Shown here: positions 1 to 44,340 of the stretch, one piece after another | Numbering within the stretch: the first letter of the stretch is position 1 | Layout of the letters: the number at the start of each line of letters is the position of its first letter | Virus record (IMG/VR): IMGVR_UViG_3300026488_000017 | Location: 40,396 to 104,395 of that record | DNA: 64,000 nucleotides | Origin: a virus | Lineage: Duplodnaviria > Heunggongvirae > Uroviricota > Caudoviricetes | Direction: 5' to 3' (one strand) | Program-made: the position numbers and the translations under genes | The notes under the pieces: generated by a model | Told to the model about the DNA's origin: nothing | What the model saw: only the letters and a program-made list of their open reading frames with translations | The model's database searches: none

Positions 1-89
1 CTCTAAGTGTTCTAAATTTAAAACCATTCTTTCTTTCCTTTCTTTTGAATTCAGTATTATAACATATAAAGTCTTAAAGCCTTCTTAAT

Positions 90-1127
90 CTATCTCTTTA
101 ATGGAATCTTTCCACTCTTTATTGTATCTCTCCAATATTGTAGTAAGTCCTCGAACATCTTTTGGACTGGTATCTCTGGTTCCCAATCGATGTATTCTTT
201 GACCTTAGAACAGCTAAACATTTGATAATCGGCATCACATTGTCTTAACCGTGATGTATCCACAGTCGTTTGAATATCTTTAACGGTACTCATACCACAT
301 AATAAATCTCTCACTTCTGTAAGATGAAATGCTTCTACACCTGCTATATTGAAATAGTCGCCATTCTTAATTTCTTCTTTTTCTGAAGCTAACATTAATA
401 GGTAATATGCTCTAACAGCATCCCTTGCATCTTGAAATGTCCTAGTACTGTCAAGATTACCTAATTCTAAGATAGGTTCTTGTAAACCTGCTTCAATCAT
501 AGCAATCTGTTTAGCTAATGTACTTTCAAAGAAAATATCACTTCTTCTAGGACCTGAGTGAGTACCCATTCTAGTAATAAATGTTTTCATATTGTAAGCT
601 TCACCATAAAACTGACCTAAATAATCTGTACCAATTTTAGAAATGCTATAAGGAGAAGCACCGTGAAATTTTGTATCTTCATTTAGTGTAACGCCTTTTT
701 CTGCTTTACCATATACTTCTGAGCTTGAACAAATATGAACGACTGGATTATAACCATCACGCTCTTTAAGCTGTCGTACAGACTCAACAATATTTGCTGT
801 ACCCATTATGTTTGTTTGTAATGTTTCTAATGGAGCCTCGAAGCTAACCTTAGGAAAAGACTGTGCTGCTAAATGGCTAATGAAATCAGGTCTATGCACT
901 TCAATCATTCTGCTTATACTAGAATAATCAATTAAATCGGCATTGTGTATAGTGATACGGTCATTTTTGTTGATTCTATCTGTTAAGTGATAGATATTGT
1001 CGAGAGGTTCTTGCCACCTCATCATACCGATAATATCCCAATCAGTATTTTCTAAGATGAAATCAGCCATAGTACTACCTACTTGACCAGTGATTCCTGT
1101 AATTAATATTTTTTTATTTATTTTCAT
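90..1127 (-). CDS. NAD-dependent GDP-sugar 4,6-dehydratase (Gmd / GDP-manno-heptose 4,6-dehydratase-like, SDR family)
   Basis: N-terminal Rossmann motif ILITGITGQVGS; length (345 aa) and overall resemblance to GDP-mannose 4,6-dehydratases; sits at the end of the GDP-heptose gene cluster. Confidence 0.65.
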   Translation of the reverse strand: MKINKKILITGITGQVGSTMADFILENTDWDIIGMMRWQEPLDNIYHLTDRINKNDRITIHNADLIDYSSISRMIEVHRPDFISHLAAQSFPKVSFEAPLETLQTNIMGTANIVESVRQLKERDGYNPVVHICSSSEVYGKAEKGVTLNEDTKFHGASPYSISKIGTDYLGQFYGEAYNMKTFITRMGTHSGPRRSDIFFESTLAKQIAMIEAGLQEPILELGNLDSTRTFQDARDAVRAYYLLMLASEKEEIKNGDYFNIAGVEAFHLTEVRDLLCGMSTVKDIQTTVDTSRLRQCDADYQMFSCSKVKEYIDWEPEIPVQKMFEDLLQYWRDTIKSGKIPLKR

Positions 1128-1135
1128 TTGATTCC

Positions 1136-1166
1136 TTATATAGTATTATAACTAAATGTTGCTTAA
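1136..1166 (-). promoter_or_regulatory. promoter-like element (minus strand TATAAT, plus-strand attata 1145-1150) upstream of the dehydratase gene
   Basis: tagtattataact; 15-20 nt before the RBS and ATG at 1127. Confidence 0.4.
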
Positions 1167-1885
1167 AATTCTTCCGTAAATCTGTGAGTGGGGTTGTACC
1201 AATTTGGTTTCATTTCGATTCTAGTATCTTTATCTTCAAAGAATTTCTCTTTAGCTTCTTTATCTGTGATGCTATCCCAATATTTACCCATTGATTCAAC
1301 TAATTCCCATTTACCTATCGTGTCGTGACCAGAAAGATTCACAACTGAAGGTGAATTAGCCCATCTGCGTACCATTTGTACAAGACCATCTTTAACATCT
1401 TCTAAATGTATTATATTTCTTTCATAATCTAAAAATACATCGACTCTTTCCTGGGATTGCACATATTTACAAAATCCATCTTCAAAACCTTCAATATCCG
1501 AAAAAACATAAGATAATCTAGCTATATGAACATTGTCGTTGGTCTCACAATAAGCCTCGATGTGCTTCTTGCTTATACTGTAAGGTGTGTCTTTACCTAG
1601 AACTACATCTGAGCTCAAGAAAATAACACGATTGTTTTCTGTTATATCTTGTATGGCTCTAATAGTACCATCTGCTACTCTAGCAGTCTTCTTAGGATGT
1701 TTTAAGCATTCAGCAGGTTTTGCCATTCCAGCAGTGAAAATGTATGTCCAACCTTGACCGAAATCCATACTCTCATAGTTTTCTAAATCAAATCTCTTTA
1801 CTACCGGCATACCTTGTGAAAATAAATAACTCCCCACAAAACCATTACCTATTACTCTAACTTTATTTTTGTCTGTATAGCTCAT
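1163..1885 (-). CDS. NAD(P)-dependent sugar-nucleotide reductase/epimerase (RmlD-like; candidate GDP-4-keto-6-deoxyheptose reductase)
   Basis: GxGxxG motif VIGNGFVGS near the N-terminus; start moved to the internal Met (ATG at 1885, preceded by AAGGAAAA) to reduce overlap with gmhB; adjacent to the dehydratase. Confidence 0.45.
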   Translation of the reverse strand: MSYTDKNKVRVIGNGFVGSYLFSQGMPVVKRFDLENYESMDFGQGWTYIFTAGMAKPAECLKHPKKTARVADGTIRAIQDITENNRVIFLSSDVVLGKDTPYSISKKHIEAYCETNDNVHIARLSYVFSDIEGFEDGFCKYVQSQERVDVFLDYERNIIHLEDVKDGLVQMVRRWANSPSVVNLSGHDTIGKWELVESMGKYWDSITDKEAKEKFFEDKDTRIEMKPNWYNPTHRFTEEF

Positions 1886-2333
1886 CGAATTTTCCTTCTT
1901 TATATAATATAAAATTTTTGACTCCAGCTGATACTGAAGCTTGATAATCACTATCTTTATCGCCTATCATCGTAGATTGACTCATATCGATACTGTATTT
2001 CTTTTGTGCATCTAATAACATACCTGGATTTGGTTTTCTTGACCAATGATTCCCTTCAGGTGTAAATGGCGAATGATACACATCTGTTATATTTATGCCG
2101 TACTCTTTTAAATCTCTTATCATTAATTTCATTAGCACTTGGAAGTCTTCTACTGTGTAGTAGCCTCTACCAATACCAGATTGATTCGTAACAATAATAA
2201 TAGTGTGTTCGGGGAATTTTTCTATAATATAACCAAGGACATCATAATTATACTCTAATTTTTCGTACTGATAGAAATAGCCATCAGGGTCTTTGTTGAT
2301 AACGCCGTCCCTATCTAAAAATAATGTTTTCAC
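1863..2333 (-). CDS. gmhB: D-glycero-D-manno-heptose 1,7-bisphosphate phosphatase (HAD family)
   Basis: N-terminal LFLDRDGVIN, the classic GmhB/HAD DxDGV motif; about 156 aa. Confidence 0.75.
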   Translation of the reverse strand: MKTLFLDRDGVINKDPDGYFYQYEKLEYNYDVLGYIIEKFPEHTIIIVTNQSGIGRGYYTVEDFQVLMKLMIRDLKEYGINITDVYHSPFTPEGNHWSRKPNPGMLLDAQKKYSIDMSQSTMIGDKDSDYQASVSAGVKNFILYKEGKFDELYRQK

Positions 2334-2344
2334 TTAGACTCCTC

Positions 2345-2384
2345 ATTTAGAGTATTATAACATAAGCAACCTTAAAGGCTTATA
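2345..2384 (-). promoter_or_regulatory. conserved phage promoter motif (extended -10 TGTTATAATA plus CCTTAAAGG)
   Basis: agtattataacataagcaaccttaaaggctt upstream of gmhB. Confidence 0.45.
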
Positions 2385-3015
2385 AAAAAGTCTTAGCTTT
2401 CTCATAATCCTCAGGAACACCAATATCTATAAATTGGCTGTCATTTCTGATTACGGTAACAAAATCTTTATATCTCTCTAAGAATTCTTCGAATGAGAAT
2501 TGCTCAGGTAAATCTTTGAATACTGCTTTGTGTAGAATATAAACACCTGAATTGATATAACCAGCTTCAGTATGCCCTTTTTCTTTGAATCGGATTTTAC
2601 CTTCTTCTATTTCCTCTACATAGCCGTAACGAGAGCAGTCGTCCTGATAAATTAAATTCATATTGATTAATGATGTAGGGTCTTGAAGCTTTACATCAGC
2701 AAATGTATCGCCGTTAAGGACGATGAGATATTCTGTACCTATTTCTTGAAATGCTAATTTGATAGCACCACCAGTACCTAAGGCATACCCTTCTTCTACA
2801 TAACGGACTGAATCTTTATAATAATCTTTGATGTAGTCTTTCATATAACCTACACCCAACCATATAGCGTGTTTTTTATATCTGTTAATAAGAATGTCTA
2901 GGAATGGTTTACCATTGATGTCAGCCATCGGCTTTGGTCTGTCAGCTACGACGCTCTGAAGCCTTGTACCCTTACCACCGGCCAGAATGAGTACTGGTAT
3001 ATTCTCTAATTTCAT
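2380..3015 (-). CDS. hddC: D-glycero-alpha-D-manno-heptose 1-phosphate guanylyltransferase (sugar-1-P nucleotidyltransferase)
   Basis: VLILAGGKGTRLQSVVADRPKPMADINGKPFLD nucleotidyltransferase signature; about 211 aa, typical HddC size; lies in the gmhA/hddA/gmhB context. Confidence 0.65.
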   Translation of the reverse strand: MKLENIPVLILAGGKGTRLQSVVADRPKPMADINGKPFLDILINRYKKHAIWLGVGYMKDYIKDYYKDSVRYVEEGYALGTGGAIKLAFQEIGTEYLIVLNGDTFADVKLQDPTSLINMNLIYQDDCSRYGYVEEIEEGKIRFKEKGHTEAGYINSGVYILHKAVFKDLPEQFSFEEFLERYKDFVTVIRNDSQFIDIGVPEDYEKAKTFL

Positions 3016-3581
3016 ACAGATTTCTTAGCATCAAATTCATCGACTGCATATGCTAATTCGTGCATTATCAAATCGTGTACAACCTGAATAACTGGTGTCG
3101 AATCAGAAGCCACCTTGATAAAATTAATGCCATCAAGATATTGCATTGTACCACCCGTTGAACCCGTTATGATAATGGTTCTCATACCCTTTTTCTTAGC
3201 TACTTTGATAGCCTCGATAATATTTTCTGAATTTCCAGATGTAGTGAACCCGATGAATAAATCGCCTGATTCTCCCATAGCTTCTAGCTGTCGTGAAAAT
3301 ATTTCTTTGAAACCAAAATCGTTTCCTATAGCAGTAATGACGGTGTTATTTGCTGTTAAATCTACTGAAGGGTAACCTCTTCGTGTTGTCATAAATTTTC
3401 CCACTATTTCGCCTACCAAATGTGACGCCGTAGCACAAGAACCACCGTTACCAGCTACATAAATTGTATTTTCTGATTTTAATGTTTCTTTGATTAAACT
3501 TTTACCTACACTCAAAGGAATTAAGTCGTGTTGTAAAGATTCTAAAGCCTTAATATGTTCTTCTATATTTTTGTTCATCAT
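3012..3581 (-). CDS. gmhA: phosphoheptose isomerase (SIS domain)
   Basis: SIS-domain motifs VAGNGGSCATASHLVGE and TTSGNSENI; 189 aa. Confidence 0.75.
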   Translation of the reverse strand: MMNKNIEEHIKALESLQHDLIPLSVGKSLIKETLKSENTIYVAGNGGSCATASHLVGEIVGKFMTTRRGYPSVDLTANNTVITAIGNDFGFKEIFSRQLEAMGESGDLFIGFTTSGNSENIIEAIKVAKKKGMRTIIITGSTGGTMQYLDGINFIKVASDSTPVIQVVHDLIMHELAYAVDEFDAKKSV

Positions 3582-3597
3582 AGTGTTTCCTTGTTTT

Positions 3598-3618
3598 GAT
3601 TATGTATTATACTGTAAA
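3598..3618 (-). promoter_or_regulatory. promoter-like -10 (gtattatac) upstream of gmhA
   Basis: motif variant; followed by the 20-nt palindrome 3619-3638. Confidence 0.35.
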
Positions 3619-3638
3619 GAAGCTTAATATTAAGCTTC
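3619..3638. other. perfect 20-nt palindrome GAAGCTTAATATTAAGCTTC (possible hairpin or protein-binding site) at the hddA stop / gmhA promoter junction
   Basis: read directly; contains two HindIII-type AAGCTT sites. Confidence 0.4.
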
Positions 3639-4643
3639 TACGACCCACGATTCAGCACCATATTCAGAAAATTGCACATCTTCTGCTTTACCACCGAATT
3701 TTTCTAAGGCTTCTTTCACCTTAAGCTTGGATTCAGGTGTCACCAAAAACATCATAAATCCAGATGCACCAGCTCCTGATAGCTTTCCAGCAAAGGCACC
3801 AGCAGTGATAGCTACACTAAAAAGATTATCCACATAAGCATTACTAATACTGTTAGATGTTTTCTTTTTTTCTTCCCAGGATTGATTCAGAATATTTCCT
3901 AATGAATGGCAATCAGATTTCAGAAGAGCTTCTTTCATCAGTAAAGCGGAATTCTTAAGCTCGTGTAATGCCTCTAATGATTTTTCGTTCTTTTGTGATT
4001 TTATTTGTTCTTCAATAACATCACCTGATGAACGCTGTTTACCCGTGAAATAAATCAGTAAGCTTGAAGAAAGCTCATTCATAAAAGACCGTTTGATTCT
4101 TAATGGATTTACAATCGTTTTATCTTTGTAAAATTCCATAAAATTCCAACCACCGTGAGTAGCACAGAATTGGTCTTGTTTTCCACCTTTTAGATTCAAA
4201 TCCTGGCGTTCAATTTCCCAAGCTAGTCCGGCTATGTCGTATTCACCTAAAGGTAGATTGTAGTATTCCACAAACGCTTGAATGATAGCTACGACCATTG
4301 TACTACTAGAGCCTAGACCTGAACCACCTGGTGCATCAGAATATGTTGTGATATTTAAAGAATCTCTATCGATGTATTTTCTGCCTATTAGACCTTCCCA
4401 AACACCTCTCATCAGTAAACAATTTTCATTCTCATATTCATTATCAAAAACATTTGCTTCTTTAATGTCGGTTGCTTTGAAATGCGTACCCATTGTGTTT
4501 GCTGATATTGTGCAGTAAGCATATTTATTGATAGTCACATTAAGAACATAACCACCAAAATCATCTGAATAAGGAGAAACATCTGTTCCACCTCCACCAA
4601 AACCTAATCTTAAAGGTGCTTTACTTCTTACTTTTCTTTTCAT
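3630..4643 (-). CDS. hddA: D-glycero-alpha-D-manno-heptose 7-phosphate kinase (GHMP kinase)
   Basis: GHMP motifs SKAPLRLGFGGGGTD and PGGSGLGSSS; start moved to the internal Met (4643) to remove the 56-nt overlap with the upstream gene. Confidence 0.7.
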   Translation of the reverse strand: MKRKVRSKAPLRLGFGGGGTDVSPYSDDFGGYVLNVTINKYAYCTISANTMGTHFKATDIKEANVFDNEYENENCLLMRGVWEGLIGRKYIDRDSLNITTYSDAPGGSGLGSSSTMVVAIIQAFVEYYNLPLGEYDIAGLAWEIERQDLNLKGGKQDQFCATHGGWNFMEFYKDKTIVNPLRIKRSFMNELSSSLLIYFTGKQRSSGDVIEEQIKSQKNEKSLEALHELKNSALLMKEALLKSDCHSLGNILNQSWEEKKKTSNSISNAYVDNLFSVAITAGAFAGKLSGAGASGFMMFLVTPESKLKVKEALEKFGGKAEDVQFSEYGAESWVVEA

Positions 4644-4650
4644 TAAATTT

Positions 4651-6156
4651 CTACCACTCATCTTCGTTAATCCCCTCTTCATCTTTTTCTTTACAGATTC
4701 TTTCAAAATCAGCTACTGTAGCAACTTTTGTCATTGTGCTCTTTCGTTTATTCTTTAAACGAATCTTAAATGTTTCTCTCTGTTCCATATATTCTTCATA
4801 AGTTTTTATCTTACTAAGTTTTGTCATAGCCCATCGATAATCTTTATCGGGAATACTGTGAAAGTCGCCTTTTCTAAAAAGTTCTACTTGGTCAAAATAT
4901 GTTCTAAGTTCCATCGCAAAGTGTAAATAAGTCTGTAATGAAATAGCATTAAGATGATTTCTAATACCTTCAATCTCTCCAAATTTCTCTTGAAAAGGTT
5001 TAATACCAGTCATACCATCTTCTCTCCAAGGTGAATATTTCTCTTGGAATTCTTTCCTAGAAAGTTTATTTCCACCTATCGTGTTCATAAGCAAATCTTC
5101 GTAAGCATCTTGTGTTTTCTGCATAAATTCTGCTACATCGGGTGCATCTTTATCTCTACCTAAACAACCCGATACGAGTTTTAATGAATGAGTTTCCTCT
5201 CCATCACGAATAAAAGATTCATCTACAAGTTTTGTATATTTACCGAATGTACTAGCACCAGTGTGTGAAGTTGAATCAAAAGTATAATGAACATCTTTAC
5301 CAAAGAAATCATTATTTAATGCAAATAAGACACCTGATTTAGATGGTCCACCTAATCCTAGAATATGTATAAGTTTTCTATGTTCTTCGGGTACCTCTGT
5401 TAAATCTCTAGGTGCTCTACAATATAAATCGAACATCTGAAAGTAAGGGATAATACCTGATGTAGCTAATGAAAGACCACCAATGTACTCAAAATATTCT
5501 GCTTTCTGTGCATCAGGCATTTCATTGAATACTGAATAAACACCACGAGCATATTCGTTATAGTCTTCGATTTCCCAACCTTGTACAATAACCATTACTT
5601 TAGTATCAGATTTTTCTTTCATAAAAACTTCAATTTGTTCTTTTATGTTAAATCCTGATTCTCGACCTGCATCAAATCTTAATTCTTCAACAAAATATTT
5701 AAGACTGTGGTCCATCTTCATACCTTGTCCAGCATTATTACTACCGGCTATAGTGTGTCGTTTTGCTTCATCCACTAGAATAGGCATCTTATCAAAACTC
5801 ATAGCGTGAGAACTAAATGTTGCTTGACATTTGTAGATTCCTAATTTGATTTCAGGTGTCATAGTTTTACCTAATGTGATAACCTGAAGTCCACCTGAAT
5901 CTGATTGTACCATTAATGTTTTCTCGGGAGTATTTAAACCTATGAGAATATCTTCTGTAGCCTGTTCTGTGAAAGCATTGTAAAGACTTCCTACACCACA
6001 ATGTTCTGTATAATCATCCAATCCAAATAGAACACCTTGAATAAATTCATCGTATTCTTTTGTCATATTTAATTTAACAGCGTGTCGTTGTATTAAGTGT
6101 AATCTTGTGAATGTGGTCATCGCTGATGCGATGTATGTTTTTTTGATATTTGCCAT
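4651..6156 (-). CDS. tRNA-guanine-transglycosylase-family protein, probable DNA 7-deazaguanine transglycosylase (DpdA-like)
   Basis: Three TGT-family motifs in the correct order: SDSGGLQV (compare DSGGFQ), IGGLSLATSG (compare GGLAVGE) and HILGLGGPS (compare YLMGVGxP); no CxCxxC zinc site; directly upstream of queE. Confidence 0.55.
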   Translation of the reverse strand: MANIKKTYIASAMTTFTRLHLIQRHAVKLNMTKEYDEFIQGVLFGLDDYTEHCGVGSLYNAFTEQATEDILIGLNTPEKTLMVQSDSGGLQVITLGKTMTPEIKLGIYKCQATFSSHAMSFDKMPILVDEAKRHTIAGSNNAGQGMKMDHSLKYFVEELRFDAGRESGFNIKEQIEVFMKEKSDTKVMVIVQGWEIEDYNEYARGVYSVFNEMPDAQKAEYFEYIGGLSLATSGIIPYFQMFDLYCRAPRDLTEVPEEHRKLIHILGLGGPSKSGVLFALNNDFFGKDVHYTFDSTSHTGASTFGKYTKLVDESFIRDGEETHSLKLVSGCLGRDKDAPDVAEFMQKTQDAYEDLLMNTIGGNKLSRKEFQEKYSPWREDGMTGIKPFQEKFGEIEGIRNHLNAISLQTYLHFAMELRTYFDQVELFRKGDFHSIPDKDYRWAMTKLSKIKTYEEYMEQRETFKIRLKNKRKSTMTKVATVADFERICKEKDEEGINEDEW

Positions 6157-6167
6157 TTATGTCCTTG

Positions 6168-6212
6168 TTGAGCGTATTATAACATTAATTTGCTTAATAT
6201 TACACGCCTGCC
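6168..6212 (-). promoter_or_regulatory. conserved promoter motif upstream of the TGT-family gene
   Basis: gcgtattataacattaatttgcttaatat. Confidence 0.4.
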
Positions 6213-6973
6213 TGATTGTTCCAGATGCGAATGTGGATTCTATCCGAATACTTGAAACCATTATCGATACATTTCTCCATAACAAATTTAGCATTTTCTT
6301 GAAGTGTTTCATTTGTATCACCAAGTGGCATTAAATAAACATCCATATATACTGGAATTGCTTTAAGAATCTCTTGAATCTCTTTGAAATCTTGCTCCCA
6401 AGATGCTTTAGAACATACAAATTTAAGGTACGATTTAGGTGACATTTCTACGATATTCGTTAAATTGTCGATATTGATTCTTTTGTGCTCTAACTCGCCA
6501 CTATTTGATAGTTTTACTGAAGTCGAAAACATTATCTCTTTTTGGTACTCGCGTGTAAAATTAATATCTAATGCACCATTAGTTTCGATTGTAATCTTAT
6601 GACCACGAGAAACATAGTGAGAAATAGTTCTTTGAAAAACTTCATCTTTCCAATAGATTAAAGGCTCTCCACCAGTGAATACAATATCAGGTTTCGTTAA
6701 AGAGTTCTTACCAAAATCGGGGATTGTAGCATCGATTCTCTCGACTAATTCTTCATATTCTGTGATAACATCCCATTCTTTTTTAAATGATTTATCGACT
6801 GAATAATACGAGTCACAACCAAATTTCTTTTCGCCTGTTATAGGGTCTTCATAAGGTACTTTAAACCCTGCACAAGTAAAATTACATAACGCACTTCTTA
6901 CAAATACAGAAGGGACTCCCATACGAGAACCCTCACCTTGTACTGAATAAAAACATTCCATTAATGAATACAT
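6200..6973 (-). CDS. queE: 7-carboxy-7-deazaguanine synthase (radical SAM)
   Basis: ECFYSVQGEGSRMGVPSVFVRSALCNFTC, plus TGGEP and ETNG motifs typical of QueE. Confidence 0.8.
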   Translation of the reverse strand: MYSLMECFYSVQGEGSRMGVPSVFVRSALCNFTCAGFKVPYEDPITGEKKFGCDSYYSVDKSFKKEWDVITEYEELVERIDATIPDFGKNSLTKPDIVFTGGEPLIYWKDEVFQRTISHYVSRGHKITIETNGALDINFTREYQKEIMFSTSVKLSNSGELEHKRINIDNLTNIVEMSPKSYLKFVCSKASWEQDFKEIQEILKAIPVYMDVYLMPLGDTNETLQENAKFVMEKCIDNGFKYSDRIHIRIWNNQAGV

Positions 6974-6982
6974 ATTTGCTCC

Positions 6983-7492
6983 TTAAGCTAGTCTTAGGTT
7001 ACCTAGTTCGTTGATTAAGATAATATCTGCTTCAGTATAATCTCCATAAGCTGTTAATTGCTCATTAAGTTTTGCTAATGATTCTTCATCTGCTTCAAGT
7101 TTTTCTGAAGGAGTGATACGATACATTGTTGGACCTTCTGAACCTTCTTCATTCTCTGTTGGTGTACTAACGATGAAACCTTGTTTAGCATAATCACCAA
7201 GAACATAAAATCTCTCTGGAACAACAACACCAACTACTGTTAAGGCACCATCTAATGCTTCTTCTGATTCGTTAAATGCTACACCATCAAGTGTACTTTC
7301 TGAAACCAAGTTAGCCATTCTCTTTAAGTTAGAAGTATAACCACCATTTAATACGATAATAGTTTTGCCTTTTTCAGCCCACTCTCCGTATAACGCATTG
7401 TCTGTTAATGAACATTCAGCTACAGCGTGTGCAGTTTGAATACCTTTTTGAATATCTGATAGATACATATTTGTAATTGAGTAAAATCTCAT
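6983..7492 (-). CDS. hypothetical protein (acidic C-terminal half)
   Basis: ORF with an upstream promoter-like motif; no recognisable motifs. Confidence 0.4.
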   Translation of the reverse strand: MRFYSITNMYLSDIQKGIQTAHAVAECSLTDNALYGEWAEKGKTIIVLNGGYTSNLKRMANLVSESTLDGVAFNESEEALDGALTVVGVVVPERFYVLGDYAKQGFIVSTPTENEEGSEGPTMYRITPSEKLEADEESLAKLNEQLTAYGDYTEADIILINELGNLRLA

Positions 7493-7509
7493 TTTAGTCC
7501 TTTGTGTTT

Positions 7510-7545
7510 GTTTGAGTAATTATACAATATCTTTACTTAATAAAA
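7510..7545 (-). promoter_or_regulatory. promoter motif variant (TGTATAAT)
   Basis: gagtaattatacaatatctttacttaat. Confidence 0.35.
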
Positions 7546-7897
7546 TTACTTTTTCTTTGTAAGCTTCTAATGTTTCATTCACATTATCTGCTAGTACATC
7601 TGGTTCATATTTTTTGTACGGCATAATATCATCGTGAGAATCGAAAATACTAGAATCCTGGGGTACAACCATACCAACCAGCGTCTTCTTGTCTTCTAAC
7701 CACTCAAAAAATAAACCATTTTCTATGAGAACGGCTTCTAACGAATGCAGTTCTGCTGTGTTCATCACCTCGAGAATTTCAATGCCTTTAACATCTTTCT
7801 TGAATTCGTTAATGATACCACCAGCTTGTGAGATAATAGAGGCTAAACGATTGAATGAAATTTTCAAATCTTTTCTTATGAGTATTTTGCTTTTCAT
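7520..7897 (-). CDS. hypothetical protein
   Basis: ORF in a co-directional gene train; no motif recognised. Confidence 0.4.
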   Translation of the reverse strand: MKSKILIRKDLKISFNRLASIISQAGGIINEFKKDVKGIEILEVMNTAELHSLEAVLIENGLFFEWLEDKKTLVGMVVPQDSSIFDSHDDIMPYKKYEPDVLADNVNETLEAYKEKVILLSKDIV

Positions 7898-8127
7898 TTA
7901 CCCAGCCTCTGTATAAAATAATTGCTTTGTTGGTATTGAACGATATACATTTCTGCCTGAGCAAGATTCTCGTAAATAAAGGCATAGATTTCAGCTACAC
8001 CTTCACCTTCTTTTAAATCTATATCAAAGCTCATAAATGTTTTCGTTCTCTTTATTGATACTGCATCCATATTTATGAGCACTATCTGTAAATCGGGGAA
8101 CCTTTGTACTTTATTTGTTAAATTCAT
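7894..8127 (-). CDS. hypothetical small protein
   Basis: short ORF overlapping its neighbours by 4 nt in the operon arrangement. Confidence 0.3.
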   Translation of the reverse strand: MNLTNKVQRFPDLQIVLINMDAVSIKRTKTFMSFDIDLKEGEGVAEIYAFIYENLAQAEMYIVQYQQSNYFIQRLGK

Positions 8128-8464
8128 CTATAATCCTATATAAAAACATATTAAGGATGAAAATTTTCATTTCTTTTGAAGAGTATTTTATGAGAGCTTC
8201 CATCTGATATGAAAATTCAAGAGCACCTAGCTCCTTGAAGCTATCAGAATCGTTCCCATAGATAGTACCTAACATCGGTAGGACCAATGCATTGTAGCCA
8301 TCGTATGCTCCTACGAGGTGAACGATACTAAATTCCAAATCATCCTGACTAGTTTTTTCGCCTCTTCTAATTTTATGAAAAACTTCCATAATCTTTTGTT
8401 CATAATCGTGTTTTTCTGTGAACCCAACGATACCGTATAGCGTGTCTGCTTCGTGATTAATCAA
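8111..8464 (-). CDS. hypothetical protein (TTG start)
   Basis: ORF; the first codon is TTG according to the sequence. Confidence 0.35.
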   Translation of the reverse strand: MINHEADTLYGIVGFTEKHDYEQKIMEVFHKIRRGEKTSQDDLEFSIVHLVGAYDGYNALVLPMLGTIYGNDSDSFKELGALEFSYQMEALIKYSSKEMKIFILNMFLYRIIDEFNK

Positions 8465-8618
8465 TGTATTGTCCTACCACATATTCAGATAATTCCATAT
8501 GGACCTTAAATTTCTGGTTTGTCGTTTTGTGTTGCCAAATATCTTTCGAGCAATCTATGCACTCGAAATGCCTATTAAAGTCTTGTACTGGAATGTTTGT
8601 GTTGTTTGCTGGGCTCAT
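8457..8618 (-). CDS. small hypothetical protein (53 aa, C-x2-C)
   Basis: not in the ORF track; ATG at 8618 is preceded by AAAGGAAAAAGA and by promoter motif copy 8626-8672; read by hand as MSPANNTNIPVQDFNRHFECIDCSKDIW... Confidence 0.35.
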   Translation of the reverse strand: MSPANNTNIPVQDFNRHFECIDCSKDIWQHKTTNQKFKVHMELSEYVVGQYID

Positions 8619-8625
8619 CTTTTTC

Positions 8626-8672
8626 CTTTATTTTGTATTATATCTAAGTTTTACTTAATTTGACCACTCACC
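8626..8672 (-). promoter_or_regulatory. promoter motif variant
   Basis: ttttgtattatatctaagttttacttaat, upstream of the small ORF 8457-8618. Confidence 0.35.
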
Positions 8673-9524
8673 TGTCCCATTAGTAATAGGAATCAGAATT
8701 GCTCTTTCATCTGTGATAGTAGCAAGAGTCTGCTCCATTAGCATTACTCGTACTTCACTACGCAGACCGTATTTATTAAATAAGAAAGGTATAGAATTAA
8801 TAACTGGTCTTTTGTAAATTGTATTATGTACAGCACTATCATAAGATGCTTGTACTGAAACAAGTTCTTTGCTAATATGTTCAGGGTTCGCAGATGTATA
8901 ATTCTCTAAATAAGCTTCAGTAACAGCAAGTTTCTCGACATCAGCTAAATCACCATCTGTTTGATATTTACTCACTAAGTCATCAAGATATTCTTTTCTG
9001 GTATCTATGAATTTGGTTTGTATTTTTGTTAGACTATTCTTAATCTTAATATTAAAACGAGATTTATTGATTGTTTCTAGTTTTTGTTCTTGTATTAAAT
9101 CAGAAGCAAGAACTTTTGTTAATTCGTTATCTAAATCTTTACTAGCTTCACTAGGAGATACATCTTCTTCGGTACTTAATATTTCTGCTCTAGGTCCAAT
9201 TAATGAAATGTCTGCGTGTATTTTACTCATCACTTCATCTGGTATTTCTACACCAATAGGTATATTTCTTGAGCTAATTTTAGTGCTAGTATCAAAAAAT
9301 CTACTCATACCCAGACCATACATATCTCTATCTTCTTTGATGGCTTTTATCTGAGCATTCAGCATCTGAATCAAAGGGTCTTTTTCTTCTTTTGTTAAAT
9401 CAACCTCGTAAATTTCTTCGAGTTTCGCTTTTACTCTATCAATGTCAATACTAAAGGCCTTGTAAGCAGTATCAGCAATTAAAAAATCTTTTTGTTCTTT
9501 TTTGTTGTTGTACCAGTTAAACAT
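8655..9524 (-). CDS. hypothetical protein
   Basis: 289-aa ORF, no motif recognised. Confidence 0.45.
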   Translation of the reverse strand: MFNWYNNKKEQKDFLIADTAYKAFSIDIDRVKAKLEEIYEVDLTKEEKDPLIQMLNAQIKAIKEDRDMYGLGMSRFFDTSTKISSRNIPIGVEIPDEVMSKIHADISLIGPRAEILSTEEDVSPSEASKDLDNELTKVLASDLIQEQKLETINKSRFNIKIKNSLTKIQTKFIDTRKEYLDDLVSKYQTDGDLADVEKLAVTEAYLENYTSANPEHISKELVSVQASYDSAVHNTIYKRPVINSIPFLFNKYGLRSEVRVMLMEQTLATITDERAILIPITNGTGEWSN

Positions 9525-9533
9525 ATTGTCTCC

Positions 9534-10109
9534 CTATTCTTGCATCAATGATTTTAGTGTATCAGTAACCTCATTCAGGTCTTTTTTCAATGAAGCAATA
9601 TTCCTAGTAACACCAGAGATATTTTTTACCTCTTTAGAAATATCAGTAAATGCTCCACCGATGCTAGAAATCGCTTCAGTCATATCACTAAGTACATCAT
9701 TCATACCGCTTATCGTTGCTGAGTACTCAGCTCTTACGCTCTCAACCCGTGTATCGATACTTGTTTGTGTTTCGATTAACTGATTGGTATTTTTTGTGAC
9801 AATCTGTGCAAGTTCGATGTTGAATTTTTCTTGGACGGCATCTAAGTTTTTTGTAACCATTTCTTTGATGTAGTTTTCAATATCGTAAGCTTTCATATGC
9901 TGTGAATGCAATTCATTCTTGTTTTCTACGAGAATATCCCAAGACTCTCTAACGGCTTCATTACTTAAATCTAAATGGAAATTGATATTATCCCATATAA
10001 TAGTTGCTGTATCTCCAGAAAATGATAACACTGCATCTAAAAGAGGCACTAGATAAGTTACATTCTCGCCGTTTTGGTTTCTAGTTAATTTTACTGTACT
10101 TTTTAACAT
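9534..10109 (-). CDS. hypothetical coiled-coil protein
   Basis: ORF with promoter motif copy immediately upstream (10128-10175). Confidence 0.45.
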   Translation of the reverse strand: MLKSTVKLTRNQNGENVTYLVPLLDAVLSFSGDTATIIWDNINFHLDLSNEAVRESWDILVENKNELHSQHMKAYDIENYIKEMVTKNLDAVQEKFNIELAQIVTKNTNQLIETQTSIDTRVESVRAEYSATISGMNDVLSDMTEAISSIGGAFTDISKEVKNISGVTRNIASLKKDLNEVTDTLKSLMQE

Positions 10110-12241: not shown

Positions 12242-13537
12242 TCAAGCGTAAATATCATTGTACGAGAATTGCCCTAATTCCACTTCATTCCCCATTGGCA
12301 TAATAAGACCTTTCATCATATTATGAATAACTGCTTCAGGAATGAATTTCCCTTCAGTCTCGTTTCGTGTTACATTTCGTTCAAAAATAGTATCGTAATC
12401 AGTACAGAAAAAACGGCTTCTTGTATCATATTTTTTGAGACGCTCATTGAATTTTTGACGGTAACCTTTGTCTTTATTTTCTATCTGAAACGAGAACCAT
12501 TTTCTTCGTGCTTTAGGCCCAACATTTGTCATATCGATAATAATATCATCACCTCTTAGTACAGCACACTCGAACTGCGAACGAATCATACGGTCGATTT
12601 CTGATTGGTCGTCCGATGTAAGAAGCGTCCAAATCTCCCCATATTTAAGAGATTTCCCATATTTGAAGCGACCTAGCTCTAATAGTGTAGCGTCTCTGCT
12701 AATCACTGTGGTATCCTCATCGACATTCTCTTTAATATAAGTGCTCTTACCTGATAGCGGTACGCCTACGAGTGCTGTGATACTACGGTCACTAATGATT
12801 CTAGTGCCTTCATCCATATCTCTATCAGGCCAGAATTTGTCCATAAAAGGCTTACCATAAAGAACGGTACCTAGCAATGAACCTTCATCAGACCTAGCAT
12901 CAGCAGATGGTGAGAAACGACCAGTGGAATCATAACGAACCTGATTAACAAATAACGGAAATAAACTTTTGTGGTTTTTCCATCGTTCTGCTACTTTCTC
13001 AGGTTTGTGCTCTTTACCATCCTTGATGCTGTCAAAAAGTGTACCGTGTAATGAGATAATCGTAAGCACATCTTGCATTTCTGAAGGAAAAATCACACCC
13101 ATTTTCACAAGCTCTTGTAACGGCTTTACAGCTTTATATACTGAAATCCCTTCGTGGCCTCTGAAATGCGTTTTCCATTCTCTAGCTAAAGCCTTTGTCT
13201 TAGAGTGCTCTTTATCCGCCTCACGAAGCTCGTTAGATTCTGTGTGGGTAGGTTTAGGCTTATTGAATGGAATAACCTCTCTCGATGCTGGCTTACCAGT
13301 GTCGTGTAGTAATGCTGCTAAAAGATTTACTGTCTCAGCTCTATCATTCTGTGCTTGTAAACATACCATCATCGTGTGAGTCCATACAGAATCTTCCAAA
13401 TGATATGGATTAGGTTCTGAATCTACAGCGGCGTGATTACTAGCTTTCATTTCGTTAGCTAAATCTGTGAATTCCATTTGGAACCAATTCACTAGTTCTG
13501 CCATTGATGGTTTTTGTTTTTCTTTAAAATAATTCAT
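12242..13537 (-). CDS. HD-domain phosphohydrolase fused to P-loop kinase domain (polynucleotide kinase/phosphatase-like)
   Basis: N-terminal HD motif H...LLHDTGKP; C-terminal Walker A GVPLSGKSTYIKE. Confidence 0.5.
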   Translation of the reverse strand: MNYFKEKQKPSMAELVNWFQMEFTDLANEMKASNHAAVDSEPNPYHLEDSVWTHTMMVCLQAQNDRAETVNLLAALLHDTGKPASREVIPFNKPKPTHTESNELREADKEHSKTKALAREWKTHFRGHEGISVYKAVKPLQELVKMGVIFPSEMQDVLTIISLHGTLFDSIKDGKEHKPEKVAERWKNHKSLFPLFVNQVRYDSTGRFSPSADARSDEGSLLGTVLYGKPFMDKFWPDRDMDEGTRIISDRSITALVGVPLSGKSTYIKENVDEDTTVISRDATLLELGRFKYGKSLKYGEIWTLLTSDDQSEIDRMIRSQFECAVLRGDDIIIDMTNVGPKARRKWFSFQIENKDKGYRQKFNERLKKYDTRSRFFCTDYDTIFERNVTRNETEGKFIPEAVIHNMMKGLIMPMGNEVELGQFSYNDIYA

Positions 13538-14723: not shown

Positions 14724-15019
14724 TGAGTAGAGTTAGAATAACAGCTGTCATAGATGGTACATTCTATTACACTAGGTCGTATGAGGATAATGAATCACTA
14801 AAAGCTAGTGTAGATAGTATAGCAAATAGCGAAGTGAAGACACAGCTATTACGCTCAGATGCCAAAGAGTTATCGTATGAAAAATTTCTGAATGATTACA
14901 AAGATGGTAAGAATATTGTTTATTTTTGGATGGATGGTAAATGGATTAAAGATACAACGAAGAATATTATTAAAAATATTGCTCGTAAAAAAATAGGTAA
15001 ATACGCAGACCTATTATAG
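14723..15019 (+). CDS. hypothetical protein with KKIGKYADLL C-terminus (no ankyrin)
   Basis: shares only the C-terminal peptide with the ankyrin family. Confidence 0.45.
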   Translation: MSRVRITAVIDGTFYYTRSYEDNESLKASVDSIANSEVKTQLLRSDAKELSYEKFLNDYKDGKNIVYFWMDGKWIKDTTKNIIKNIARKKIGKYADLL

Positions 15020-15361
15020 AAATAAGTGAGGTTCATTTTCTTTGAGCTTCAGAATATCTACCCCAAAACCTTCTAACAAAAAATCATAATAATCAATAAG
15101 ATTTTCTACACGATTTAGATTTTCCATTACATTCCAAAATAAAGATGTTATTCTATTCATATCAGAAGCTTGTACTGATACAGAACCAAACGCACAACGA
15201 CCAAAATCCCCAACAATAGCATTGTACTCAAAATATAACATACCCAAAGAAATTTTATCTTTCTCGATGATTCGTTTCTCCTTGTGTTTCAGGACCCAAT
15301 TCTTGATATATTCTTTACCATAGAGAGTAGGGTTGTCAAAAGAGTTGATGTGTACTATCAT
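15014..15361 (-). CDS. hypothetical protein, PHLxL C-terminal family
   Basis: C-terminus LKLKENEPHLFL is paralogous to 11934..12161; convergent with and overlapping the end of the array. Confidence 0.4.
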   Translation of the reverse strand: MIVHINSFDNPTLYGKEYIKNWVLKHKEKRIIEKDKISLGMLYFEYNAIVGDFGRCAFGSVSVQASDMNRITSLFWNVMENLNRVENLIDYYDFLLEGFGVDILKLKENEPHLFL

Positions 15362-15362
15362 A

Positions 15363-15908
15363 TTATTTTACTAATTCAACATCACAAGTAACTTCATCTT
15401 GGTAGAACCAGTTCGTGTAGCACTTAGTGCTTATATTCAGGTAACCATTCTTTTCATAGAATAAACCATATTCGAAATACCCTTCTTTATTATCTCTGTT
15501 ATTATAGCTTACAATAAGCTCAGAAGAATTTCTATCAACGATGCTATAATTACCTCTCACAAACATTAATCCACTTTTTTGAACTACATTCGTTTCTGAA
15601 GTACCTTGGAACTGCGCTACTACTGAAAACCAAACGATAATAAACATTATTATTGCACTTACATAAATCTTGAATGTGCTATCCCACAATATGTCTATAT
15701 CTATAAAGAATATAGATACAGCATAAAAAACAAAAACGCCAATAAATAATCCGTATGAATCAGGGTTAATGAACACCAATATAGGGAATAACGGTATAAA
15801 CAGTACAGCCAAAACTTTCGATAATTTTTCTGTGTTTAATTCTCTTTTAGTCATTACAGTCCTTCTACTTTTAGATATCCACTTGGAGTCACTTTTGAAT
15901 CTGACCAA
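15363..15908 (-). CDS. membrane protein
   Basis: three predicted TM helices (LAVLFIPLFPILVFI, LFIGVFVFYAVSIFFI, IIMFIIVWFSVVA). Confidence 0.4.
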   Translation of the reverse strand: MVRFKSDSKWISKSRRTVMTKRELNTEKLSKVLAVLFIPLFPILVFINPDSYGLFIGVFVFYAVSIFFIDIDILWDSTFKIYVSAIIMFIIVWFSVVAQFQGTSETNVVQKSGLMFVRGNYSIVDRNSSELIVSYNNRDNKEGYFEYGLFYEKNGYLNISTKCYTNWFYQDEVTCDVELVK

Positions 15909-16345
15909 CTATTACTATATATTTCAATCGCCGTAATGTTTTTATCTCTTAGGTACATTGATTTATATTTGTAATATGTGCTTTCATCTAATTTACGGAA
16001 TAAGCCTATTGAAGTGTCTAAATCTACAATTATCTGCTTATTATCTACAAATAATAGGTTTTGATATACTAGTTTTTCTGTATTAGAAGTTTCATCAAAC
16101 ACGATAGATAAGTATATACCAGCTACTATTAGACCGATAAGCGTATATAATACTGGACCAACTGTATCATCTGTTACCTGAGTCAAAAACCAAGTAAATG
16201 TCCAAATACCTACAAGCAATGCTATAGATATTAACCCAAAACTCACGAAATCAAAATACATCATTACGAATGGTATTGGTAATGCCACTAACCAAGTCAC
16301 AAATATCTTGATTTTATATGTGTTAAATACTCTTTTCGTTTCCAT
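15854..16345 (-). CDS. membrane protein
   Basis: three TM helices at the N-terminus; overlaps the downstream ORF, so either start may be shorter than listed. Confidence 0.4.
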   Translation of the reverse strand: METKRVFNTYKIKIFVTWLVALPIPFVMMYFDFVSFGLISIALLVGIWTFTWFLTQVTDDTVGPVLYTLIGLIVAGIYLSIVFDETSNTEKLVYQNLLFVDNKQIIVDLDTSIGLFRKLDESTYYKYKSMYLRDKNITAIEIYSNSWSDSKVTPSGYLKVEGL

Positions 16346-16614
16346 TATTTTCCTTCCTTCTCTAATCTTAATTGGTATCTTGATTTTGAGTTCTCACAAC
16401 CACATTCTGAATGTTCATCATTTTCATCATCGTAGAAATCATCACCACAATGTTCACATATCGAAGCTTTGAAATGCTTTAAATCTACCCACTCAACATC
16501 TTCTGACTTACCTATTGATTCGAATGCTAACTTAGCAGAAACACCGTCACTAAAATTTAATGTCATATCTTCACCTGAGTTCGGTCTAACGAATAATTCA
16601 AAAATATCTTTCAT
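16345..16614 (-). CDS. small Cys-rich (zinc-ribbon-like) protein
   Basis: CEHCGDDFYDDENDEHSECGCE; promoter motif copy upstream (16628-16675). Confidence 0.4.
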   Translation of the reverse strand: MKDIFELFVRPNSGEDMTLNFSDGVSAKLAFESIGKSEDVEWVDLKHFKASICEHCGDDFYDDENDEHSECGCENSKSRYQLRLEKEGK

Positions 16615-24723: not shown

Positions 24724-25335
24724 CTATTTCAGTATAAAGACACCTAATCCGTTCCAGTAATCATTTTTTGATTCTGATTCAGTAAATATCTCTTTTTTGT
24801 ACACAATTTTCTTGTTTAATGTATTTATAAAATAATCGATAGCAGTTTGTACGCTCTCAAAATTATAATCATCCAAGATTAATATAGCATTATTAAGTAT
24901 TTTTTCGTATAGGACTAGGAATTTAAAAATATCTTCTACCTCGTGTGAAGCATCATAGAAAATAACATCGAATTTTTGACTCCGTAGAGCACCATAAACC
25001 TCAGGACTAAAAATATCAGCGTTGATTATTTTTGTGTTAGTGATTTTGTATTTTTTGAGATTATTTTCTAGCGTTTGTGTCGTATCACCTATATCAATAT
25101 CTAGGACTGGTATCGTTTCAGTAAATATTAAGGAATCTATTGCCGTTACACTTTTAGCGGACAAGGCAATGGGAATCGTACTAGCACCTTTGAAATAACC
25201 TATTTCCAAAACATTTTTACCTTTAGAAACCTCGTGTAGAAAATATTGAGATTTTGGCGATGTCAATCCACATAGATTATATTCTGTGTATTTCTGTGAA
25301 TCGATTTTATCGAAAATTTCATCTAGGTATTTCAT
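24724..25335 (-). CDS. class I SAM-dependent O-methyltransferase (TylF/MycE-like, Methyltransf_24)
   Basis: VLEIGYFKGAST (SAM-binding motif I) and FDVIFYDASHE. Confidence 0.5.
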   Translation of the reverse strand: MKYLDEIFDKIDSQKYTEYNLCGLTSPKSQYFLHEVSKGKNVLEIGYFKGASTIPIALSAKSVTAIDSLIFTETIPVLDIDIGDTTQTLENNLKKYKITNTKIINADIFSPEVYGALRSQKFDVIFYDASHEVEDIFKFLVLYEKILNNAILILDDYNFESVQTAIDYFINTLNKKIVYKKEIFTESESKNDYWNGLGVFILK

Positions 25336-26348
25336 AGAATATCCTCACATTTTGTGCATTTCCAGCAGTCAAAATTACAATTTTTTGTCCAATCCACCCA
25401 TTCATCAAAAACCTCATCTGAAATATTATTCTTGCTTTTGATTTTGTAAAATTCATTCGTGCTTTGTAATGCTAAGATACCTAGCTCTGTTACCTTCTCT
25501 ATAATGAATAACGAGTTCAGGAAAACATTTTTAGACTCTCTCCCGTGAAGCTTGAAGACATCGATTCCATCTAAGCCTTCCATAAAAGATTCGGTAGGGA
25601 TGATGCTAGATTTTTTGAGACCGTATGATGGGTCTTCTTTCTCCCATTTGTAACACGAAACATTATACATTGAGCTCTTGAAAAAAACTTCTTTCTGTGT
25701 ATTGATATTATTATTCACATTGTAGGTGTAATGCTCTGATTGAATAGGGCAGTTACCAATACAGTTCTCGTTCCATAATATGCTCAAGCTTAGTTTTTTC
25801 TTAAGGATTTCTTGTGCTTTATCTCTTGCTTCGTATATCTCTTTGAGAGTATTTTGTGACCTCATAAGATTCCTATCTACATTGACATAATCAAAACCAG
25901 CTAAGAAAGCATCATACACTTCTCTAGGTTTGTCTAACGAGTGCAAAACAGTATTCTTAATATACAAATCAGGAAATTCTTTCTGAATCTTCCCAAAATA
26001 TAACCAAGAGGTAAAAGGAATAGTAACAGTTCTTATGCCAATATTATATAGATTTCTGAAATTGGCTATGAAAATATCAAGATTTTTTTCGGAAGGAGAG
26101 ATATGAATATTATTGAATACTGGAGATACTTTGATACCAGTTAATTGCTGTATTATTACGGCATTTGAAATATTTGTTGTAATATCTTCTTTTGTGAATA
26201 TAGTCCCCATAGCATCTTGGTTGAATGGTGCCATTCGTACTGTAAAATAAATATCGTTTATGTGATTTTTGTATTTAAGCAAGAAAGGAACTAAATGCTC
26301 GTGAATGTACTCCGGGGTTAAATCCGGGTATAGAGGTAATGAAAACAT
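25332..26348 (-). CDS. hypothetical Cys-rich protein
   Basis: CIGNC and C-terminal CNFDCWKCTKC clusters; no confident family. Confidence 0.35.
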   Translation of the reverse strand: MFSLPLYPDLTPEYIHEHLVPFLLKYKNHINDIYFTVRMAPFNQDAMGTIFTKEDITTNISNAVIIQQLTGIKVSPVFNNIHISPSEKNLDIFIANFRNLYNIGIRTVTIPFTSWLYFGKIQKEFPDLYIKNTVLHSLDKPREVYDAFLAGFDYVNVDRNLMRSQNTLKEIYEARDKAQEILKKKLSLSILWNENCIGNCPIQSEHYTYNVNNNINTQKEVFFKSSMYNVSCYKWEKEDPSYGLKKSSIIPTESFMEGLDGIDVFKLHGRESKNVFLNSLFIIEKVTELGILALQSTNEFYKIKSKNNISDEVFDEWVDWTKNCNFDCWKCTKCEDIL

Positions 26349-36921: not shown

Positions 36922-36930
36922 GGAGATATT

Positions 36931-44339: not shown

Positions 44340-44340
44340 A

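Follow-up and report, generated by a model that had tools for sequence, protein, structure and literature searches.

We report that a phage operon for 7-deazaguanine DNA modification contains, in the slot between its DpdA-type transglycosylase gene and the genes for DpdL and a glycosyltransferase, a six-gene cassette predicted to make 6-deoxy-heptose activated with guanosine diphosphate (GDP). The cassette lies in a stretch of 64,000 nucleotides from a giant, T4-like tailed phage of the class Caudoviricetes (IMG/VR record IMGVR_UViG_3300026488_000017, positions 40,396 to 104,395; hereafter, the window), for which a preliminary description made from the sequence had noted six co-directional heptose genes at 90-4706. 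A heptose pathway in a phage is by itself uncommon and has precedents; what is notable is its placement within a conserved module of DpdA, DpdL and glycosyltransferase genes. With gene linkage pointing to the acceptor, we give an even chance to the idea that this cassette supplies GDP-6-deoxy-heptose for the glycosylation of a 7-deazaguanine-derived base in phage DNA. More broadly, and tentatively, since we hold it a little short of even, we propose that glycosylated 7-deazaguanine is a widespread DNA hypermodification made through a conserved DpdA-DpdL-GT4 module, which cultured phages and over 560 IMG/VR contigs carry, with sugar-donor cassettes that are specific to each lineage, here one for 6-deoxy-heptose.

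The six open reading frames (ORFs) of the cassette are tightly spaced on the minus strand of the window (Table 1), with overlaps of 4 bp and 23 bp and gaps of 35-49 bp. Using the dehydratase, we found the parent contig (ENA ERZ27262635 k141_314747; 331,651 bp), whose own gene calls gave the identical six genes. The ORFs and the contig gene calls confirm the arrangement noted earlier, and the cassette is genuine gene content rather than a chance pattern. Pfam searches identified GDP_Man_Dehyd, HAD, NTP_transferase, SIS_2 and GHMP kinase domains among the encoded proteins. For two of the genes the start deserves comment: the mechanical ORF of the reductase extends to 1951, its 240 residues being counted from an ATG at 1885, and the mechanical ORF of HddA starts with a TTG at 4706, its 343 residues being counted from the ATG of the contig gene call. 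A megablast comparison of window positions 1-8000 with 50,697 phage records returned no near relative.

In the case of four of the proteins, the top NCBIfam model was a heptose-specific one: HddA (4.4e-110), HddC (6.6e-46), GmhA (2.1e-47) and GmhB. All four scored below the curated equivalog cut-offs (368 of 600 bits for HddA, 157 of 300 for HddC, 161 of 209 for GmhA and 132 of 178 for GmhB), which suggests divergent phage versions whose substrate identity is predicted rather than certified. For GmhB, the best matches were NF006506 (132 bits), NF050049 (130 bits) and TIGR00213 (126 bits), all under cut-off, while GmhA scored 161 bits with TIGR00441 and 15 bits with the model of the arabinose-5-phosphate isomerase KdsD. 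Comparison with solved structures gave a wider separation. The dehydratase was found to be 69% identical over 343 columns to the GDP-heptose 4,6-dehydratase of Campylobacter jejuni (PDB 7US5; E 4.5e-160), with the best GDP-mannose dehydratase far behind at 2.4e-36. The structures closest to HddC were 5XHW/6JQ8, from a protein of the Yersinia 6-deoxy-D-manno-heptose pathway (1e-35; runner-up 8e-13), and those closest to HddA were the heptose kinases 3K85, 4USK/4USM and 4N3O (1e-87 to 1e-98), the next family being fucokinase at 1e-16, so that in both instances the best heptose structures lead the next family by more than 20 orders of magnitude in E-value. Taken together, best family and best solved structure support heptose specificity for five of the six predicted enzymes, and as homology-based calls the gene assignments of the cassette are solid. 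These searches favour the heptose enzymes proposed in the preliminary description over the ManC, Gmd or RmlD paralogues that it had named as the alternative. We also considered an arabinose pathway like that of phage RB69, and rejected it on the basis of the full-length GHMP heptose kinase, the much stronger match of GmhA to its own family than to KdsD and the 69% identity of the dehydratase to a heptose dehydratase.

The sixth protein, a short reductase, gave no match in a Pfam search or in a search of PDB sequences at E values up to 1, and a HMMER scan of 1.84 billion representatives recovered just 3 close relatives. Its distant relatives, of about 285 residues, are proteins with RmlD_sub_bind/Epimerase domains, in comparison with which it is 40-50 residues shorter. 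In the alignment, the GxGxxG motif (G13, G15), Ser91 and the Tyr102-x3-Lys106 pair are invariant or nearly so. This remote homology, together with the conserved Rossmann and catalytic motifs, backs the earlier call of a short-chain dehydrogenase/reductase despite the empty Pfam search, and our preferred reading of the protein is a sugar-nucleotide 4-keto reductase in shortened form.

The decisive context, which the preliminary description had overlooked, is provided by the two genes immediately upstream of the cassette, which encode homologues of DpdA and QueE (Table 1), the former overlapping the start of HddA by 11 bp. By tblastn, the window DpdA is homologous to 71 phage proteins, and it aligns over residues 8-308 with YP_008125322 of Vibrio phage nt-1 (29% identity, E 2e-25). 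The latter is DpdA2, a DNA guanine transglycosylase (PMC6884629) for which insertion of preQ0 into DNA has been shown in E. coli (PMC10516641). A hidden Markov model of the window DpdA family matched nt-1 DpdA2 at 6e-65, and the transglycosylase motif DSGGLQ is invariant across the family, whose member in the window has in addition an extra helical C-terminal domain and a conserved C-terminal Trp. The Pfam TGT model matched one homologue (2e-6) and otherwise missed the family, validated nt-1 DpdA2 included; a profile search of PDB sequences gave no TGT match; and an AlphaFold model (predicted local distance difference test, pLDDT, 89.5) was matched by Foldseek to generic TIM barrels and, weakly, to the TGT-like Cap10 (E ~1e-2). 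Because none of the fold, PDB and Pfam searches gave a clear TGT, the DpdA assignment rests on sequence homology to nt-1 DpdA2. As for QueE, the five best NCBIfam models were all QueE models (2e-18 to 3e-11, below their cut-offs), and the QueE proteins of related loci share 41-46% identity with this one.

An acidic tail with a terminal Trp closes the DpdA proteins (...NEDEW in the window; ...PEEW and ...DEEW in the related locus L003). Of 20 homologues, at least 90% keep this last Trp, and in the model the tail is disordered. A methyltransferase-like ORF in L003 ends likewise, in ...ESEW (L003 tail sites: 8236-9999, 14934-16412 and 3644-4639). The tail has the look of a short docking motif, and its partner might be a replisome component, for example the clamp or the single-strand-binding protein. 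Next to QueE on its upstream side, at 6983-7492 of the window, a 169-aa protein matches PHROG 3668 ‘hydrolase’ (5.9e-28), and a PTH2-family protein is encoded near the module in L005; such a PHROG 3668 / PTH2-type protein may be a recurrent neighbour of the module. In L003, a 425-aa HNH-like ORF (6928-8205) lies between QueE and DpdA, with a related 148-aa ORF at 300-746, and this is probably a homing endonuclease inside the modification operon.

In the parent contig the operon continues past the left edge of the window. All on one strand, it reads QueE, DpdA2, HddA, GmhA, HddC, GmhB, reductase, dehydratase, a 706-aa unknown protein, DpdL (117 aa), a 160-aa unknown protein, a GT4-type glycosyltransferase (335 aa), FolE, QueD and an HGPRT-like phosphoribosyltransferase. 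No terminator-like site was found on the coding strand from 6156 to 90, and scans for the T4 late-promoter motif, sigma-70 promoters and terminators gave nothing above chance. Two further contigs, L003 and L096, have this cassette too, again placed between DpdA and the DpdL-glycosyltransferase pair, and among the loci surveyed the heptose cassette is restricted to these two and the parent contig. The proteins of L003 (IMG/VR UViG_3300026484_000390) are 44-88% identical to those of the window, and in L096 the genes for DpdL, the glycosyltransferase, FolE, QueD and the phosphoribosyltransferase come straight after that for the dehydratase. As the 706-aa and 160-aa proteins (L001 11101-13221 and 13626-14108), which have no match in Pfam, PHROG or NCBIfam, are absent from L096, we treated them as insertions outside the core module. 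The content of the 706-aa position is variable, with a second DpdA paralogue (492 aa) in L003 and neither unknown protein in L096.

The 117-aa protein is DpdL by its sequence, being 38% identical to DpdL of Cellulophaga phage phiST and carrying LRDDHRH as its version of the LxxxHRH motif. DpdL is a T-fold protein similar to QueD, with LxxxHRH in place of CxxxHGH; it has been proposed to be a 7-carboxy-7-deazaguanine decarboxylase and was found in phages that have DpdA, FolE, QueD and QueE and lack QueC (PMC10516641). The parent contig fits this setting, as DpdA, FolE, QueD and QueE are all present and the SGGxDS PP-loop motif of QueC was found neither in the window, nor in the ~74 kb that were read of the 331-kb contig, nor in any of 80 related loci. 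The motif is present in nt-1 and in Xanthomonas phage X1, the latter being the only glycosyltransferase-bearing locus with it among those seen. In X1 a PP-loop protein annotated as belonging to the PAPS reductase family (L093 5341-5874) lies between FolE and the glycosyltransferase, DpdA and DpdL genes, and X1 may make a different deazaguanine derivative.

The glycosyltransferase gene lies ~3 kb past the left edge of the window, inside the deazaguanine operon. The preliminary description was thus correct that no glycosyltransferase is recognisable in the window, and this does not extend to the wider locus; the two places that it had suggested for a transferase (42975-45531 and 25332-26348) matched only PHROG families of unknown function and gave no transferase signal. 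The 335-aa protein matched Pfam Glycos_transf_1 at 25.1 bits, just under the cut-off of 26.4, and some of its homologues carry a precomputed match. A profile search of the PDB with the family and an NCBIfam search returned, respectively, marginal and weak GT4 matches only. A structural model of a 91%-identical homologue, made with a 35-sequence alignment (pLDDT 92), has the two Rossmann domains of the GT-B fold, is nearest to retaining transferases of the GT4/GT5 type (Foldseek, MshA at 5.7e-12) and belongs to a family in which an E-x7-E pair is invariant. From the modelled fold, the protein is a GT4-type retaining GT-B glycosyltransferase.

This glycosyltransferase family (194 matches in a protein search; at least 568 IMG/VR stretches) allowed gene linkage to be surveyed. 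We took the best 80 of the at least 568 IMG/VR loci, picked solely for having a glycosyltransferase homologue, and searched them with profiles made from seed loci; many of these contigs are truncated. A DpdL-like protein was encoded near the glycosyltransferase in 78 of the 80, always on the same strand and always with LxxxHRH, at a distance of 500 bp or less in 70. A DpdA-like protein of 510-550 aa was found in 73 loci, FolE in 61, the phosphoribosyltransferase in 60 and QueE in 48, with the QueC motif in none. When aligned by hhalign, the 510-aa family matched the DpdA family across the DSGGxQ and HxLG motifs (probability 88.7%, E 2.6e-6), and gp168 of Pseudomonas phage PA5oct matched both profiles. 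The linkage recurs in cultured phages, with the orders QueD-FolE-x-DpdA-GT-DpdL-QueE in Acidovorax ACP17, GT-DpdA-DpdL-QueE in Xanthomonas X1, gp168-gp167-gp166...QueE in PA5oct and DpdL-GT...FolE...QueE in Sinorhizobium Phosso (GT, glycosyltransferase), and it is carried by Xanthomonas BUDD and Burkholderia BCSR5 as well. The glycosyltransferase is therefore a conserved partner of deazaguanine genes. The HGPRT/XPRT-like phosphoribosyltransferase (L001 16709-17170) is likewise a regular member of the module, and may recycle guanine set free in the base exchange, or else convert a deazapurine base to its nucleotide.

The genes for donor supply differ between lineages at the same place. In L006, which reads FolE-QueD-DpdA-DpdL-GT-ManC-QueE, the glycosyltransferase is directly followed by a ManC-type mannose-1-phosphate guanylyltransferase, an enzyme of GDP-mannose synthesis, and in many marine loci an epimerase (36 of the 80) or a cytidylyltransferase-like gene (31 of the 80) is nearby. 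In such marine loci, as at 4334-6203 of L008/L009, a short epimerase/dehydratase-like gene and a gene for a 135-aa cytidylyltransferase-like protein stand beside the DpdA-like gene, and some of these loci have a fragment of UDP-glucose (UDP, uridine diphosphate) dehydrogenase. These epimerase and cytidylyltransferase-like genes could form an alternative sugar-donor route for the same glycosyltransferase family.

Table 1. Genes of the heptose cassette and the adjoining deazaguanine genes, in window coordinates.
Predicted product	Position	Strand	Length (aa)	Basis
GDP-heptose 4,6-dehydratase (DmhA / C. jejuni type)	90..1127	-	345	Pfam GDP_Man_Dehyd 8.6e-70; PDB 7US5
Compact RmlD-like short-chain dehydrogenase, predicted 4-keto reductase	1163..1885	-	240	PHROG 540 ‘nucleotide-sugar epimerase’ 8.7e-10
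GmhB, putative heptose 1,7-bisphosphate 7-phosphatase	1863..2333	-	156	NCBIfam; DRDGVIN HAD motif; N-terminus MKTLFLDRDGVINKD
HddC, putative heptose-1-phosphate guanylyltransferase	2380..3015	-	211	NCBIfam HddC; PDB 5XHW/6JQ8
GmhA, putative sedoheptulose-7-phosphate isomerase	3012..3581	-	189	TIGR00441 gmhA; Pfam SIS_2
HddA, putative heptose-7-phosphate kinase	3630..4661	-	343	NCBIfam HddA; PDB heptose kinases
DpdA2-type DNA guanine transglycosylase homologue	4651..6156	-	501	tblastn to nt-1 DpdA2
QueE, putative 7-carboxy-7-deazaguanine synthase	6200..6973	-	257	Pfam Radical_SAM; NCBIfam

Enzyme families assigned by homology, gene order and conserved linkage are the observations from which we built a pathway; in it, we infer the order of the steps, the acceptor atom, the presence of the sugar on DNA, its stereochemistry and the protective role. 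GmhA would isomerise sedoheptulose-7-phosphate, HddA would place a phosphate onto C1 and GmhB would remove the 7-phosphate. Once the sugar has been activated, the dehydratase would yield GDP-6-deoxy-4-keto-D-lyxo-heptose, and reduction at C4 by the short RmlD-like reductase would give GDP-6-deoxy-heptose, a reaction scheme already worked out in C. jejuni (PMC10680097). As there is no C3/C5 epimerase gene, the product of the cassette is probably the manno isomer. In parallel, FolE, QueD and QueE would produce 7-carboxy-7-deazaguanine, which DpdL, the proposed decarboxylase, would process, and DpdA2 would then swap the processed base for guanine in the phage DNA, with the phosphoribosyltransferase probably salvaging the guanine that is freed. 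Finally, the retaining GT-B enzyme would move 6-deoxy-heptose from GDP to the deazaguanine-derived base, whether this is already part of the DNA or still free and awaiting insertion. The outcome would be a bulky hypermodified G that protects the genome from host nucleases.

Several points weigh against this pathway. The evidence for the acceptor is gene linkage throughout, all four core heptose enzymes score under their curated NCBIfam cut-offs, and the enzymes nearest to the glycosyltransferase in structure mostly have small molecules or sugars carried on lipids as substrates (MshA, BshA, sucrose-phosphate synthase and PglA). If the product of DpdL is plain 7-deazaguanine, as in phiST DNA, C7 offers no obvious hydroxyl or amine to glycosylate, so that unusual chemistry would be called for, such as a C-, N2- or O6-linkage, attachment to a pyrrole-ring carbon or an ester on the carboxy intermediate. 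Since phiST has DpdL without a glycosyltransferase homologue, the known product can form without the transferase. Heptose clusters without deazaguanine genes nearby occur in Bellamy, MH319741, MT836453 and L004. Finally, ~74 kb of the 331-kb genome were read, and QueC or a cytosine hydroxylase may lie elsewhere.

A rival reading is an operon that makes a glycosylated small molecule, a pterin, deazapurine base or nucleoside serving as cofactor, protectant or antimetabolite, with GDP-6-deoxy-heptose as the donor. FolE and a PTPS-like enzyme also open the way to pterin synthesis, and the HGPRT-like phosphoribosyltransferase found in three quarters of the loci (60/80) is of the kind that turns base into nucleotide in the pathways of deazapurine nucleoside antibiotics. 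The structural neighbours of the glycosyltransferase include the tetrahydrobiopterin glucosyltransferase 5ZER as well as MshA and BshA, and the invariant residues of its N-terminal half are mostly acidic or aromatic, not basic. We nevertheless regard a small-molecule product as unlikely, because a DpdA-type transglycosylase, whose only known job is to bring deazaguanine into DNA, accompanies the glycosyltransferase in 73 of the 80 loci and in cultured phages; because in many lineages the module lies among replication genes, beside the DNA polymerase; and because the catalytic Cys on which QueD/PTPS chemistry depends is missing from DpdL.

The sugar might instead be destined for another acceptor altogether. 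We think it quite improbable that the cassette consists of auxiliary metabolic genes that alter the host lipopolysaccharide, O-antigen or capsule, for example to block superinfection, and that its adjacency to deazaguanine genes is accidental. The bacterial version of this exact pathway does feed capsule and O-antigen (PMC10680097), in Bellamy the HddA, HddC, short reductase and dehydratase genes sit in a transferase-rich 25-kb island and probably do serve to remodel the host surface, and other phage heptose clusters come without deazaguanine genes. Yet the slot between DpdA and the DpdL-glycosyltransferase pair is kept, with overlapping reading frames, in three diverged contigs, and the single glycosyltransferase nearby is of the family linked to DpdL in 78 of 80 loci; in addition, no flippase, polymerase or lipid-carrier enzyme was seen among the genes at hand, and a sister lineage has ManC at the equivalent place. 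The presence of tail-fibre genes in the window would be in keeping with transfer to capsid or tail-fibre proteins, or the sugar could go to 5-hydroxymethyl- or 5-hydroxy-cytosine, as in T4 and RB69, with the deazaguanine system independent of it. We consider this very unlikely, given that the ~50 larger ORFs scanned in the window and L001 include no thymidylate-synthase-like cytosine hydroxylase or hydroxymethylase, and that the glycosyltransferase family is linked to DpdL and DpdA rather than to structural genes.

Elsewhere in the window, at 33803-38052 on the plus strand, three tandem paralogous genes encode tail proteins (615, 423 and 373 aa) that all match PHROG 5939 and 1419; they run counter to most of the window, and the sign of the GC skew flips there. 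A 431-aa protein (12242-13537) belongs to PHROG 6931, of unknown function, and resembles polynucleotide kinase, RNA ligase and ATPase families in its C-terminal half. The T4-type DNA polymerase (47825-50749) has ~30% identity to that of any cultured phage, with its best full-length matches in Campylobacter phages, and the G+C content of the window is ~33%. From the polymerase matches, the C. jejuni-like dehydratase and the G+C content, our guess would be a host in the Campylobacterota.

Sugars on modified cytosines and 7-deazaguanines as bare bases are both known already. If our proposal of a heptosylated deazaguanine holds, the base would be the first in DNA to bear a heptose and, for any genome, the first purine analogue with a sugar attached, with a heptose donor that is new for any nucleic acid; our literature search found no report tying heptose or any glycosyltransferase to deazaguanine DNA, nor one of such a base. 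The proposal would also explain why the reconstitution of dpdL with dpdA in E. coli failed (PMC10516641), and the modular exchange of sugar-supply cassettes would be a phage route to diversify DNA modification. Whether a host defence or a laboratory enzyme can cut a phage genome is determined by the hypermodifications of its DNA, and these have also yielded new enzymology and tools. The linkage spans environmental phage contigs by the hundred, both T4-like and jumbo, along with the cultured ACP17, PA5oct, X1, BUDD, BCSR5 and Phosso, and its presence in cultured phages makes the prediction directly testable.

The closest bacterial counterpart of the cassette is the pathway for C. jejuni capsule and Yersinia pseudotuberculosis O-antigen, with which it shares all six predicted activities (PMC10680097). 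The bacterial genes are found in a polysaccharide locus, whereas those of the phage are in a DNA-modification operon, where the reductase is shortened to 240 aa and has almost no relatives, and where there is no C3/C5 epimerase gene. Among phages, the T4-like Synechococcus phage Bellamy has HddA, HddC, a homologue of the short reductase (2e-21) and, as in the window, the dehydratase (4e-160) after it, the order of all four being shared; they lie in an island with several glycosyltransferases, a carbamoyltransferase and a UDP-glucose dehydrogenase, and with no DpdA, DpdL or QueE nearby. A heptose and polysaccharide island is present in phage SynMITS9220M01 as well, Caulobacter phage Cr30 has an HddA homologue, and HddA homologues occur in other phage records too. 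With the Bellamy cassette and these HddA homologues in view, the earlier statement that such a pathway is highly unusual in a T4-like phage was too strong.

With regard to the transfer step, the alpha- and beta-glucosyltransferases of T4 use host UDP-glucose to modify a hydroxymethyl group on cytosine and have no detectable sequence similarity to the glycosyltransferase described here. A loose analogy is provided by QTMAN, an enzyme of family GT4, which in vertebrate transfer RNA moves mannose from GDP-mannose onto queuosine, a 7-deazaguanine derivative already in the nucleic acid; its target is RNA, its acceptor is the cyclopentenediol hydroxyl of queuosine, and the likeness drawn here is one of reaction. 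A similar logic is seen in the arabinosyl-5-hydroxycytosine system of RB69, DLP3, HY126 and Bas46/47, in which the phage encodes an SIS isomerase, a kinase, a HAD bisphosphate phosphatase and a nucleotidyltransferase, and in which the glycosyltransferases match the same structures as the one in the window operon (6KIH) and have a non-canonical DNA base as their acceptor (PMC13326640). The two differ in the sugar, which is UDP-arabinofuranose there and would be GDP-heptose here; in the kinase, which there is a protein-kinase-like domain fused to the nucleotidyltransferase and here is a GHMP kinase; and in the base, which there is a pyrimidine arising via a thymidylate-synthase-like hydroxylase, in a pathway with no dehydratase or reductase step (PMC13326640).

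On the side of the base, the nearest system is that of Cellulophaga phage phiST, whose DNA contains 2'-deoxy-7-deazaguanine (PMC10516641). When dpdL and dpdA of phiST and of ACP17 were expressed in E. coli, they gave no product, and that study mentions no glycosyl step (PMC10516641). Like the phage described here, phiST has a DpdA2-type transglycosylase, FolE, QueD, QueE and a DpdL with LxxxHRH, and no QueC. It differs in being without a homologue of the glycosyltransferase: to this shared set, the phage described here and hundreds of related contigs add a GT4-type glycosyltransferase, and the lineage of the window adds the six-gene heptose cassette on top.

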